From Escherichia coli (lineage in GTDB: Bacteria > Pseudomonadota > Gammaproteobacteria > Enterobacterales > Enterobacteriaceae): DNA of 64,000 nt. Position 1 is the stretch's first letter, and every line of letters begins with the position of its first letter. The stretch is from assembly GCF_044324785.1 (NCBI RefSeq), contig NZ_CP172127.1; one strand, given 5' to 3'. Position numbers and translations under genes: made by a program. This document shows positions 2,078 through 11,885 of this stretch, one piece after another. A model generated the notes under the pieces. That model searched no databases and was not told where the DNA came from. It saw only the letters and a list, made by a program, of their open reading frames with translations.

Positions 2078-2945
2078 ATTGAAAGCAAACATACGACATT
2101 CATTTTGCTGATAACGCTGACGGATAGTGCTTCGCCACAATGTCATTCATCTTATCCACCAGATCCAGTCGCTTGAATGTGATGTGTCCACTGCCTTTCT
2201 GAAAGTAGCGAATAGTGAACAACTCATCTTCGAAAATCTGCTGATGCGGATTATCGCGCACAAAATCCATAAACCGGATGGAGACATCATGCCGGTTATC
2301 GGGAATGGTCTTCCCATCCAGCAGGTAGAACATCCGTTCCAGATCGGCAAGCTGATCTCGCCGCCAGCCCCAGTTCAGGCTGTAGCCCCATCTGTCATGC
2401 TTCACCAGATTGTTAACGATAATCTTCTTACCGAAATAACAGGGATTATTGGTTTTGTAGTCCCAGCTTAACCCTTTAAATACATTGATAATCCCACGTT
2501 CGAAAACATCCCGTTTATTGTGGTGGAGTTGTTCAAAGGTACTCAGGATGTTGGCTTCGCTAATAGCCGGGAGATCGCCCTCCTCCAGGTTCTTTGCCCA
2601 CTGACTGCGGGCTTCGGCATCCATCAGGGTCAACATCCCGGACTTCAGCATGAGATCGCGCCAGATACCGCGGTCGATATTTCGGGTGATCACCGGCATC
2701 GCTTTGTCGGTTGGCTGCATCAGCCAGCAATCAAAGGCATATCCATTCCGCATTGCCCAGGTTCCAGCCACATTACCGCCAATACTGGATGTCAGGCTGG
2801 AGATATCATCCAGTTTTTGGATTAACGTCGCTATCTGGTTCAGTGCACTATCACGACCCGTCACGATACGCTCAATACTGGTCGAGCAAATTAGCTCGTT
2901 ATGATCGGTTAAGACTTCAGCTTCTGTTTGCATAATCTTTCATCC
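2078..2945. repeat. Copy A of an ~865-bp direct repeat (second copy at 11018..11885, ~95% identical)
   Basis: Manual alignment of the two regions shows near-identity across the whole 277/285-aa ORF and ~20 bp of flank; weaker similarity continues to ~3050 versus ~11975. Confidence 0.85.
2100..2933 (-). CDS. Conserved island-associated hypothetical protein (277 aa), paralog of 11025..11858
   Basis: Complete ORF with ATG start; protein is ~96% identical to the second copy. No family can be assigned from sequence alone. Confidence 0.6.
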   Translation of the reverse strand: MQTEAEVLTDHNELICSTSIERIVTGRDSALNQIATLIQKLDDISSLTSSIGGNVAGTWAMRNGYAFDCWLMQPTDKAMPVITRNIDRGIWRDLMLKSGMLTLMDAEARSQWAKNLEEGDLPAISEANILSTFEQLHHNKRDVFERGIINVFKGLSWDYKTNNPCYFGKKIIVNNLVKHDRWGYSLNWGWRRDQLADLERMFYLLDGKTIPDNRHDVSIRFMDFVRDNPHQQIFEDELFTIRYFQKGSGHITFKRLDLVDKMNDIVAKHYPSALSAK

Positions 2946-3239
2946 GTAAAAAAATACACTCGCCGTTAGTAGCAAACGGATTATCCACTGGTGAAAGATT
3001 GGGTAAATAATGAGATTGAAAATTGGGAAGATGACTCGCAATAAATTATCTGGTCGCCTACGGATGGGCGATGGGCATATAAAGTAGCCTCCTGACGCAA
3101 GCGGTGAATGCTGAGTAAGATGCACTAACAATCTGGTACTGAATCCCCTCCTCACCGTCATACAAATCTGAAAAACCAAACAACTTCCGGTAAAATCCCG
3201 GCAAAAGCCGACGTTAAAAACACATTCAAAGGATAAAAA

Positions 3240-4796
3240 ATGACCAGTCTTCAGCAGCGCGCGGAGCTTCATCGCCAAATCTGGCAAATTGCTAACGATG
3301 TCAGAGGTTCGGTCGATGGATGGGACTTTAAGCAATACGTTCTGGGCGCGCTTTTCTACCGTTTTATCAGCGAAAATTTTTCCAGCTATATTGAAGCCGG
3401 TGATGACAGCATCTGTTATGCGAAACTGGATGACAGCGTAATTACTGATGACATTAAAGACGATGCCATCAAAACCAAAGGCTACTTCATCTACCCAAGT
3501 CAGCTTTTCTGCAACGTAGCTGCGAAAGCAAATACCAATGACAGACTGAATGCAGATTTAAACAGCATCTTCGTTGCTATCGAAAGTTCTGCTTACGGTT
3601 ACCCTTCAGAAGCTGACATCAAAGGTTTGTTTGCTGATTTCGATACCACCAGTAACCGCCTGGGTAACACCGTTAAGGATAAAAATGCCCGCCTGGCCGC
3701 GGTTCTGAAAGGGGTTGAAGGATTAAAACTTGGTGACTTCAACGAACATCAGATTGACCTGTTCGGCGATGCCTATGAGTTCCTGATTTCTAACTATGCG
3801 GCGAATGCTGGTAAGTCAGGCGGCGAGTTCTTTACACCGCAGCACGTCTCTAAGCTGATTGCACAACTGGCTATGCACGGGCAGACCCACGTTAACAAAA
3901 TCTACGACCCGGCAGCAGGTTCCGGTTCGCTGTTGTTGCAGGCTAAAAAACAGTTCGATGACCACATCATCGAAGAAGGCTTTTTCGGTCAGGAAATCAA
4001 CCATACGACCTATAACCTGGCGCGTATGAACATGTTTTTGCACAACATCAACTACGACAAGTTTGATATCAAGCTGGGCAATACGCTGACTGAGCCGCAC
4101 TTCAGAGATGAAAAACCGTTTGATGCCATCGTTTCTAACCCACCGTATTCGGTGAAATGGATTGGCAGCGATGATCCGACGCTGATTAACGATGAGCGTT
4201 TTGCCCCAGCTGGCGTCCTGGCCCCCAAATCAAAAGCTGACTTCGCGTTTGTATTACATGCGCTGAACTATCTTTCTGCCAAAGGTCGTGCTGCGATTGT
4301 CTGCTTCCCGGGCATTTTTTACCGTGGCGGCGCGGAGCAGAAAATCCGTCAGTATCTGGTTGACAATAACTATGTCGAAACCGTGATTTCACTCGCACCG
4401 AACCTGTTCTTTGGCACCACCATTGCCGTAAATATTCTGGTGCTGTCTAAACATAAAACGGATACCAAAGTTCAGTTTATTGACGCCAGCGAACTGTTCA
4501 AAAAAGAGACTAACAACAACATCCTGACCGATGCCCATATAGAAAAAATTATGCAGGTATTTGCCAGCAAGGAAGATGTTGCTCATCTGGCGAAATCTGT
4601 TGCGTTTGAGACTGTTGTCGCGAATGACTATAACCTGTCGGTGAGCAGCTATGTGGAAGCGAAAGATAACCGCGAAATTATCGATATCGGTGAGCTGAAT
4701 GCTGAGCTGAAAACCACGGTCAGCAAAATCGACCAGTTGCGCAAAGATATTGATGCGATTGTGGCTGAAATTGAAGGCTGCGAGGTGCAGAAATGA
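3240..4796 (+). CDS. hsdM: Type I restriction-modification system methyltransferase subunit HsdM (type IC-like, EcoR124/Ecoprr family)
   Basis: 518-aa ORF with AAGGA ribosome-binding site; N6-adenine methyltransferase motif NPPY ([11 protein letters not shown]) and AdoMet motif DPAAGSGSL. Gene order M-S-R with hsdS starting inside the hsdM stop (ATGA) matches type IC organisation. Confidence 0.9.
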
Positions 4797-10567: not shown

Positions 10568-10955
10568 TTAATCTGCTGTTCCCTACAGATAATACGCGTT
10601 TAAAACGCCGGGGGGTTTTTATCTCGGGTGAAGCTGGGATCTGCGTAGAAGTACCGCTATTGTATGCCTGCGTTGCGCCAGCAAAACGATAGCGTACTTT
10701 CAGGCGTTCCAGCGTTTCGACAATCACCGCTGAAGAGCCTCCGGGAGCCGCTGGCATTACCTTGCCTGTAATACCGTTCCGCCGTGCTTTGGTATACACG
10801 CCATAACCAACCTTCAACAGTTGCCCTTCCCTGACAAGATCGCGCAATACCCGACCAACCTGATCGTAGCCTGCAATATCTTTAAAGTCGTCACGAGTGA
10901 ATACGTAACGTTTAGAACGTTTCAGTCGTGACTGAATGCGTGCTTTTATCGTCAT
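10560..10955 (-). CDS. AbiEi-like antitoxin / winged-helix regulator (short form, ~131 aa)
   Basis: Start chosen at the ATG preceded by AGGAGG (MTIKARIQ...); the ORF-track start at 11024 abuts the upstream gene and lacks a ribosome-binding site. Basic N-terminus; translationally coupled to the toxin. Confidence 0.55.
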   Translation of the reverse strand: MTIKARIQSRLKRSKRYVFTRDDFKDIAGYDQVGRVLRDLVREGQLLKVGYGVYTKARRNGITGKVMPAAPGGSSAVIVETLERLKVRYRFAGATQAYNSGTSTQIPASPEIKTPRRFKRVLSVGNSRLNG

Positions 10956-11017
10956 ATTCGCCTCCTGAGTCATTGCATAAAGAGTAGCAAAAATACGACA
11001 TTTTAGATAGCAAACAT

Positions 11018-11885
11018 ACGACATTCATTTTGCTGATAACGCTGACGGAAAGTGCTTCGCCACGATATCATTCATCTTATCCACCAGATCCAGCCGCTTG
11101 AATGTGATATGCCCACTGCCCTTCTGAAAGTAGCGAATAGTGAACAACTCATCTTCGAAAATCTGCTGATGCGGATTATCGCGCACAAAATCCATAAACC
11201 GGATGGAGACATCATGCCGGTTATCGGGAATGGTCTTCCCATCCAGCAGGTAGAACATCCGTTCCAGATCGGCAAGCTGATCTCGCCGCCAGCCCCAGTT
11301 CAGGCTGTAGCCCCATCTGTCATGCTTCACCAGATTGTTAACGATAATCTTCTTACCGAAATAACAGGGATTATTGGTTTTGTAGTCCCAGCTCAATCCC
11401 TTAAATACATTGATAACCCCACGTTCGAAAACGTCCTGCTTATTGTGGTGGAGTTGTTCAAAGGTACTCAGGATGTTGGCTTCGCTAATCGCCGGGAGAT
11501 CGCCCTCCTCCAGGTTCTTTGCCCACTGACTGCGGGCTTCGGCATCCATCAGAGTCAACATCCCGGACTTCAGCATGAGATCGCGCCAGATGCTGCGATC
11601 GATATTGCGGGTGATCGCCGACATCGCTTTGTCGGTTGGTTGCATCAACCAGCAGTCAAAGGCATATCCATTACGCATTCCCCAGGTTCCAGCCACATCA
11701 CCGCCAATACTGGATGTCAGACTGGAGATATCATGAAGTTTTTGGATTAACGTCGCTATCTGGTTCAGTGCACTATCACGACCCGTCACGATACGTTCAA
11801 TGCTGGTCGAGCAAATTAGTTCGTTATGATCGGTTAAGACTTCAGCTTCTGTTTGCATAATCTTTTGTCCGTATAAAAGCAAATG
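11018..11885. repeat. Copy B of the ~865-bp direct repeat (see 2078..2945)
   Basis: Manual alignment, ~95% identity. Confidence 0.85.
11025..11858 (-). CDS. Conserved island-associated hypothetical protein (277 aa from MQTEAEV), paralog of 2100..2933
   Basis: Start set at the ATG corresponding to the start of copy A; the ORF track extends 8 codons further upstream. Confidence 0.6.
   Translation of the reverse strand: MQTEAEVLTDHNELICSTSIERIVTGRDSALNQIATLIQKLHDISSLTSSIGGDVAGTWGMRNGYAFDCWLMQPTDKAMSAITRNIDRSIWRDLMLKSGMLTLMDAEARSQWAKNLEEGDLPAISEANILSTFEQLHHNKQDVFERGVINVFKGLSWDYKTNNPCYFGKKIIVNNLVKHDRWGYSLNWGWRRDQLADLERMFYLLDGKTIPDNRHDVSIRFMDFVRDNPHQQIFEDELFTIRYFQKGSGHITFKRLDLVDKMNDIVAKHFPSALSAK

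Follow-up and report, generated by a model that had tools for sequence, protein, structure and literature searches.

In Escherichia coli the tRNA gene leuX anchors defence hotspot #37, the most occupied of 41 hotspots (PMC12707154). The published passages on this site describe a tRNA-recognising integrase beside the anchoring gene and clusters of defence genes that replace one another among strains (Hochhauser et al. 2023, PMC10121019; EcoSal Plus 2025 review, PMC12707154), and they place type IC restriction–modification (R–M) systems in 4% of genomes at the hotspot, along with phosphorothioate (PT)-related defence (PMC12707154). Here we describe a stretch of 64,000 nt from an E. coli genome (RefSeq assembly GCF_044324785.1, contig NZ_CP172127.1), referred to as the window in the following, in which two paralogous genes of the DUF4942 family lie as direct repeats near leuX and bracket a type IC hsdMSR operon together with the AbiE genes of an integrated island. 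The site is that of hotspot #37, with leuX between lptG/ahr and the fim/nan side and the integrase at the tRNA anchor, and the frequency of type IC systems that we observed at leuX (193 + 87 of 5,426 complete RefSeq E. coli genomes, the set used for all complete-genome counts) agrees with the published 4%. The window is an instance of hotspot #37 in a tandem state, it represents ordinary island turnover at a variable hotspot, and it reveals no new mechanism. What is new is the use of DUF4942 paralogues as a recombination junction, with examples of deletion, conversion and re-assortment. In contrast, the hotspot #37 passages of the two papers contain neither the DUF4942 junction nor the tandem two-copy state nor the derivatives by deletion and conversion; DUF4942 does not occur in these passages, and a full-text literature search for DUF4942 returns four papers, which include neither PMC10121019 nor PMC12707154.

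The closest described relatives of the type IC system are EcoR124I and EcoR124II of plasmid R124, for which a specificity switch by unequal crossing-over in a 12-bp repeat of hsdS is on record (Price et al. 1989, as cited in PMC12707154). The system in the window matches them over the full length of HsdR (residues 1-1038 against 1-1038 of 2w00_A) and of HsdM (residues 3-520 against 1-518 of 7bst_D), it has the same gene order hsdM-hsdS-hsdR, with hsdM and hsdS overlapping, hsdR separate and all three genes on the plus strand, and its HsdS carries TAEL repeats, which number three in the window and two in relatives. These matches bear out the type IC assignment made in an earlier, sequence-only reading of the window. 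By contrast, the system described here is chromosomal and located at leuX, whereas the plasmid homologues have no adjacent DUF4942 gene: we found no DUF4942 gene beside EcoR124-type hsdMSR on plasmids, and the homology to these plasmids spans only 3237 (the hsdM start codon) to ~9230. The target-recognition domains of HsdS also differ here, with 68% identity to other leuX alleles.

A second comparison concerns the CP4-type elements of E. coli K-12 (CP4-6, CP4-44 and CP4-57, and KpLE2 at leuX). They share with the island in the window the P4-type integrase beside a tRNA gene, the direct repeat of the tRNA 3′ end and a conserved DUF932-radC-cbeA-cbtA block near the distal end, which in the K-12 CP4 elements we take to be the yfjQ(DUF932)-radC-yeeT-cbeA-cbtA module. 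Unlike in those elements, the block here ends with DUF4942 and AbiE, and the central cargo consists of defence systems. Finally, RecA-dependent deletion between direct repeats, as in the decay of islands and prophages, resembles the events reported below in the same orientation of the repeats, in the retention of one hybrid copy and in crossovers that fall within identity tracts. However, the repeats at this locus are diverged paralogues from two elements and not copies of an insertion sequence (IS) or att sites.

The direct repeat consists of two DUF4942 genes

Self-BLAST of the window yields one long direct repeat (E=0), whose two copies, termed A and B (Table 1), align without gaps and with 40 mismatches, which corresponds to 95.5% identity; the spacing from the start of copy A to the start of copy B is 8,925 bp. 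The repeat unit comprises a single DUF4942 gene together with 20 bp upstream and 30 bp downstream of it. The same-orientation paralogous open reading frames (ORFs) of 277 aa and 95% identity that the sequence-only reading had reported were recovered in this way, both on the minus strand. Its coordinates were within 8 bp for copy A (2078..2945), whereas those for copy B (11018..11885) were ~15 bp out of register and overshot the end by 7 bp. The weaker homology that it had seen continuing to ~3050 and ~11975 was not confirmed, as the 200-bp flanks on both sides of the repeat are unrelated, with 25-27% ungapped identity and no BLAST match at word size 7.

The Pfam model PF13708 is matched from end to end (residues 83-271 against model positions 1-189/190). 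There are 9 substitutions between the proteins A and B, third codon positions account for 24 of the 34 mismatches in the coding sequence, and NG86 estimates are 0.014 for dN, 0.157 for dS and 0.088 for dN/dS. Both DUF4942 genes are intact and under purifying selection. The copies share eight tracts of perfect identity of at least 25 bp (272, 62, 59, 50, 45, 41, 38 and 26 bp), and the minimal efficient processing segment in E. coli is about 25-30 bp. With the same orientation and with identity tracts of this number and length, the repeats qualify as a substrate for deletion. As they extend over 884 bp at 95.5% identity with long perfect tracts, host homologous recombination can use the two copies; mismatch repair probably damps recombination at 4.5% divergence. 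The 272-bp tract was also considered as a recent conversion between A and B, which we rejected because no other part of the gene is as conserved across all alleles.

Origin of the two copies

Between hsdR and the AbiE genes we observed a remnant of the leuX 3′ end, in which one base of the 18 nt is deleted and which is the sole other match to this sequence in 1..36000. The window is colinear with E. coli 1303 over 1..9441 exactly, and colinearity resumes at 34591. In E. coli 1303, A25 and ET358, all of which are island-free, the gene order is mcrB-DUF4942-hsdMSR-leuX-ahr and no insert is present between hsdR and leuX. Because of the att remnant and these empty-site genomes we assign the sequence in between to an island in leuX, whose distal end reads DUF932-radC-cbeA-cbtA-DUF4942(B)-AbiEi-AbiEii-att′. 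The adjoining resident block has no integrase and reads ...mcrC-mcrB-DUF4942(A)-hsdM-hsdS-hsdR-leuX. Close homologues of DUF4942 are nearly always found in the order DUF932-radC-cbeA-cbtA-DUF4942, which is present in at least 16 Enterobacterales species representatives, and copy A is an orphan in this respect, with its usual upstream partners replaced by hsdMSR. A second att remnant beside copy A was not found in 1..36000, and we therefore rejected copy A as the end of a distinct old island.

Sequence comparison with orthologues in other strains points in the same direction for both copies. Between copy A and the A25 orthologue there are 2 differing nucleotides (99.8% identity), and between copy B and island-borne orthologues 23-30 (23 in strain 1500), as against 40 between A and B. 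The silent-site divergence (dS 0.157) makes the copies too old for a recent local duplication. They were acquired separately, on two neighbouring elements, copy B and AbiE as island cargo and copy A with hsdMSR as part of the older resident flank. A duplication of copy B into copy A in this genome, or the reverse, would account for the same orientation, the gene-sized unit and the sharp boundaries of the repeat. However, apart from the silent-site divergence, copy A is almost identical to an orthologue from an island-free genome, copy B groups with the island-borne orthologues, and single-copy ‘parental’ configurations are common, so that we give such an in-situ duplication next to no credence.

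Two origins had been offered by the sequence-only reading, namely the insertion of an hsd/AbiE cassette into a CP4-like element and the fusion of two CP4-like elements. According to the first, hsdMSR-AbiE would be a single defence cassette that was inserted in one CP4-like element and thereby duplicated or split DUF4942; the repeats indeed bracket the segment exactly, and both modules are defence systems. This origin is contradicted by the leuX att remnant at 9425..9441, which separates the resident hsdMSR from the AbiE genes of the island, and hence the two do not form one cassette. Moreover, hsdMSR occurs with copy A and without AbiE or the island in ~190 genomes, AbiE occurs with copy B and without hsdMSR in 44 genomes, and the copies are 4.5% diverged, each of them nearer to orthologues elsewhere. 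A single cassette is thus hardly credible. The second proposal, a fusion of two elements, came close to the truth.

We consider it very probable that the separately arrived paralogues became direct repeats through tandem occupation of leuX and in this way became usable for recombination. In this scenario the resident block mcrC-mcrB-DUF4942(A)-hsdMSR-leuX would predate the island; a P4/CP4-type island of 25 kb would then have inserted into leuX, leaving the 17/18-bp att remnant, and its insertion would have placed copy B at a distance of 8.9 kb from copy A, with both copies pointing the same way. Homologous recombination between the copies would delete 8,925 bp and leave one hybrid gene between cbtA and mcrB, which would remove the type IC R–M system, AbiE and the distal att site of the island. 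With the distal att site lost, the rest of the island would be immobilised. As an alternative outcome, part of copy A may be converted by copy B. A competing route would be integrase-mediated excision between att′ and leuX, which would remove copy B and AbiE, keep hsdMSR and restore a 1303-like state.

Deletion and conversion in the lineage of the window

An exact-sequence look-up in public draft E. coli assemblies returned protein A on ~224 contigs and protein B on ~200 contigs. The locus L047 (GCA_020389665.1) is 99.93% identical to the window over 1013..21859 (20.8 kb) and has both copies in place, ~20 contigs are similar to it, and one contig of 5.5 Mb also spans both copies. The tandem two-copy state is real and inherited in this lineage. 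The sequence-only reading had looked to relatives for a single-copy deletion state, and such a state was found in draft assemblies of the same lineage, in the form cbtA-hybrid DUF4942-mcrB with hsdMSR and AbiE gone. The predicted deletion hybrid protein, which combines the N-terminus of B with the C-terminus of A, is present in public data (P0153); we observed it on ~10 contigs, compared to ~200 two-copy contigs.

On one such contig (L052; Logan ERR7450775, 66 kb) the gene order is DUF932-radC-cbeA-cbtA-hybrid-mcrB-mcrC-..., while hsdMSR, AbiE and att′ are absent from the contig. Its variable sites are A-type at 2078..2142 and B-type at 2169..2949. A second contig (L053; SRR9996274) carries a hybrid with the crossover in 2197..2468, followed by the left flank of copy A, an IS2 end and the end of the contig. 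We take the sequence at 10964..10991 of this contig (TAGACTGGCCCCCTGAATCTCCAGACAA) to be the IS2 terminal sequence; this putative IS2 end lies ~100 bp from the hybrid gene and breaks up the intergenic region between DUF4942 and mcrB. A different product was observed on a 528-kb contig (L048/L051; ENA ERZ21883336), where both copies are kept and copy A contains a conversion patch flanked by A-type sites. The switch points of the hybrid copies fall in identity tracts. One more hybrid, with the cut between residues 141 and 148, was found beside hsdM on a single metagenome-like contig of 3.2 kb and gives a weak hint of another conversion. Six further deletion-type hybrids were absent from the protein collection, and the duplication-type hybrids tested (4 of 8 possible) were absent from ~15 billion proteins.

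It could be argued that the repeats are inert in recombination, being mere leftovers of tandem integration, and that the contigs with deletion or conversion are artefacts of short-read assembly. Logan contigs are k=31 de Bruijn assemblies from which singleton k-mers have been removed and in which each 31-mer occurs once per accession (PMC12424806). Such contigs show the shared 272-bp tract once and wrong flanks could be joined there, and the L053-type crossover inside this tract could in principle be a graph-traversal artefact. Several other points weigh against recombination between the copies as well. If conversion had covered a very long tract in a two-copy genome, the result could look like L052, and the apparent loss of hsdMSR and AbiE in ERR7450775 and SRR9996274 is seen in draft short-read contigs. 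Among the complete genomes we found neither the tandem two-copy layout of the window (0/5,426) nor the mcrB-DUF4942-cbtA deletion junction (0/5,426). Within the window itself there is no evidence of gene conversion between the copies, with only 3 scattered sites being suggestive, and both the RecA dependence and the rate of the deletion are inferred.

However, the crossover tract of L052 is, with 26 bp, shorter than k=31, and for this reason the k-mers of the hybrid must occur in the reads; in addition, the 66-kb contig traverses the crossover site unbranched. The patch on ERZ21883336 would require two path switches over many distinguishing sites in a contig of 528 kb that holds both copies, and a hybrid of the type found in strain CI5 is present in 87 complete genomes, as described below. 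Taken together, inert repeats seem improbable to us.

DUF4942 and its flanks in complete genomes

Three arrangements around DUF4942 were observed in the complete genomes. The order mcrB-DUF4942-hsdM occurs in 193 of them and AbiE-DUF4942-cbtA in 44, among them strain W, while a third arrangement, AbiE-DUF4942-hsdMSR-leuX (e.g. CI5), is present in 87. In E. coli W, GMM060 and JNE141411 the distal end of the island including AbiE lies beside a different neighbour, which in strain W is another island. The DUF4942 gene of CI5 is a mosaic, B-type at 2078..2196 on the AbiE side and A-type at 2928..2949 on the hsdM side, and thus an exchange within DUF4942 or at its borders has re-assorted the flanking modules in nature. 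The most economical route to the CI5 arrangement, we infer, is an allelic replacement for which the core flank and DUF4942 provide the homology arms. In all, public genomes show 3 of the 4 possible combinations of DUF4942 flanks, the tandem state, and the derivatives by deletion and conversion.

In strains 1500 and CI5 (L005, 5711..6003; L046) the AbiE end of the island is connected to a PT-DNA endonuclease gene that is truncated to 150 bp. The junction contains a 293-bp segment that matches neither the window nor other loci, and the att remnant is missing. A simple deletion in a window-like ancestor was considered as the source of this left junction and rejected because of the 293-bp segment.

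The DUF4942 family comprises 2,205 cluster representatives at E <= 0.001, which are mostly stand-alone proteins of ~270 aa, and a few members carry a fused C-terminal S-adenosylmethionine (SAM) methyltransferase domain. The best match among GTDB species representatives has 92% identity and comes from Citrobacter. As a tentative and rather doubtful generalisation, DUF4942 might serve leuX islands as a portable homology arm at the edge of their cargo, through which defence cassettes are swapped, lost or recombined between strains or within a genome. If this were true, McrBC or AbiE would be found on one side of DUF4942 and the type IC R–M system or the whole island on the other, and given its strong conservation (dN/dS 0.09) the gene would be a recurrent crossover point. 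It is a weaker possibility that DUF4942 has a function connected with DNA methylation or anti-restriction, which is suggested by the homologues fused to SAM methyltransferase domains.

Loss of the type IC system and variation of its specificity

The sequence-only reading had regarded the repeats as a substrate for RecA-mediated deletion or amplification. Their length and similarity suffice for this and the deletion product was seen, whereas no amplification junction was found in the lineage and the part played by RecA is presumed. It had further suggested that the type IC system could be switched off or on, which does not hold, as the DNA is irreversibly lost by the deletion. Because the removal of DNA is irreversible, the deletion is a loss route and not a switch. 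A programmed and reversible phase-variation switch, which would act on the type IC system by deletion and by amplification or re-insertion, could be argued from the existence of deletion products, from the known recombinational variation of type IC systems, and from the number of TAEL copies, which is three in the window as against two in relatives of 99.9% identity. However, inverted repeats of at least 40 bp were not found in 1..20000, nor was a recombinase within the bracketed segment, so that neither a dedicated enzyme nor an inverted-repeat architecture would support such a switch. None of the reciprocal, duplication-type hybrids tested occurs among the proteins searched, and the two-copy form dominates the lineage (~200 contigs as against ~10 with the hybrid protein). 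A phase-variable R–M switch implies a reversible rearrangement that controls expression; what we observed is a one-way removal of DNA, and we consider a programmed switch very unlikely.

Within the bracketed region it is the TAEL repeat, located in the central conserved region of HsdS, that is a genuine recombinational specificity switch; it corresponds to the classical spacer change between EcoR124I and EcoR124II cited in PMC12707154. Three copies are found in the window and in CI5, and two in L047, L048 and L049, which are the 99.9%-identical relatives, as well as in 1303, A25 and ET358. The specificity of the type IC system probably differs within the lineage via the length of the TAEL spacer. 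In many island-free genomes with the order mcrB-DUF4942-hsdMSR (e.g. ET358), IS2, IS3 or IS5 lies in hsdM or hsdS, or hsdR has an internal stop, so that other events, too, frequently inactivate the type IC system.

The locus provides a sequence-resolved example of turnover at leuX, in which an incoming paralogue and a resident gene recombine and neighbouring defence systems are deleted, converted or re-assorted. For strain typing and for predictions in phage therapy it follows that the 8.9-kb deletion by itself can make strains of one lineage differ in type IC restriction and AbiE, and that the TAEL repeat can make them differ in type IC specificity as well.

Features of the locus

The coordinates of the features discussed are listed in Table 1.

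Table 1. Features of the leuX locus in the window (window coordinates; sites within the repeat are given on copy A)
Feature	Position	Strand	Evidence or remark
mcrB, 5′ part, extending past the left edge of the window	1..1742	-	Colinear, 97.9%, with the McrB family gene of E. coli 1303
Direct repeat, copy A	2070..2953		Self-BLAST, 884 bp
DUF4942 gene A (277 aa)	2100..2933	-	Pfam PF13708, E=1.4e-70; hsdM upstream in place of cbtA
Crossover tract of L052, 26-bp identity	2143..2168		Switch between A-type and B-type sites
Longest perfect identity tract, 272 bp	2197..2468		Crossover interval of L053; one boundary of the conversion patch
Gene conversion patch	2469..2811		Copy A B-type over 24 consecutive sites in L048/L051
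hsdM, type IC	3240..4796	+	TIGR00497, 651 bits; EcoR124II M protein 7bst_D, 1153 bits
hsdS, 389 aa, three TAEL repeats	4793..5962	+	Translation; PF01420 on orthologue
12-bp x 3.3 tandem repeat (TAEL) in the central conserved region of HsdS	5315..5354	+	TRF
hsdR, type IC, 1038 aa	6084..9200	+	EcoR124I HsdR 2w00_A, 2253 bits; PF12008 EcoR124_C on orthologue
att remnant, 17/18-bp copy of the leuX 3′ end (TGGTGCGAAGGCCGGAC)	9425..9441		Distal island boundary
Integrative island in leuX, ~25.2 kb	9442..34641	-	att remnant, colinearity with island-free genomes, integrase
AbiEii nucleotidyltransferase toxin (predicted)	9620..10567	-	PF08843, E=6e-30; PADLOC AbiEii, E=8e-128
AbiEi/DUF6088 antitoxin (predicted)	10560..10955	-	PADLOC AbiEi, E=5e-53, from residue 24 of the long ORF; Pfam
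Direct repeat, copy B	10995..11878		Self-BLAST, 884 bp
DUF4942 gene B (277 aa)	11025..11858	-	Frame and length as in A; canonical position after cbtA
cbtA toxin	11973..12314	-	PF06755 on the L047 orthologue (locus 99.93% identical); RefSeq annotation in E. coli W
cbeA (YeeU) antitoxin	12345..12680	-	PF06154; annotation
radC-like gene	12680..13153	-	NF000642/TIGR00608
DUF932 gene	13183..14001	-	PF06067
Tyrosine integrase, P4/CP4-57 type	33173..34519	-	NF007246, E=7e-84; adjoins leuX
tRNA-Leu(CAA), leuX, integration site	34642..34726	-	ARAGORN

For mcrB, the Pfam domains AAA_5/McrB_lid were found on the orthologue in L047. AbiEi lies upstream of AbiEii, and the two genes overlap by 8 bp (10560..10567); the start of AbiEi was taken from the 131-aa RefSeq annotation of DUF6088 (e.g. 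in E. coli W), while the open frame reaches 11024. The predicted AbiE genes fit the layout of a type IV toxin–antitoxin or abortive infection system. The cargo of the island further includes a second type I R–M system (20060..26349), which is unrelated to the type IC system and has the gene order hsdR-hsdM-hsdS, the sirtuin defence protein Dsr1 (27098..30889, 1670 bits), a PDC-S08 candidate (31039..32004) and the gene of a phosphorothioated-DNA-binding restriction endonuclease (32082..33002). The last of these has 73% DNA identity to the resident gene beside mcrC in E. coli 1303.

Other observations in the window

Between ahr and yjgR, a segment of 5.1 kb (35942..41031) that contains idnK, idnD, idnO, idnT and idnR is absent from E. 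coli 1303. This idn segment, for L-idonate/gluconate catabolism, is an ordinary presence/absence polymorphism. The adjoining core genes at 41032..47500 (yjgR, lptFG, pepA, holC, valS) have at most 98.2% identity to any of the complete genomes. This points to unusual divergence, either of the lineage or of this region next to the hotspot, although draft assemblies from the lineage bear the label E. coli. At 54859..55126 we observed an 18-bp tandem repeat with ~15 copies and 78% matches, which can also be read with periods of 36 or 54 bp. It lies inside an ORF of 625 aa on the minus strand (53840..55717) that has no NCBIfam match, and the ET358 gene at the corresponding position is annotated ‘DNA-binding protein’. 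Finally, self-BLAST shows a 90-bp inverted match of 80% identity between 52099..52188 and 60670..60759.

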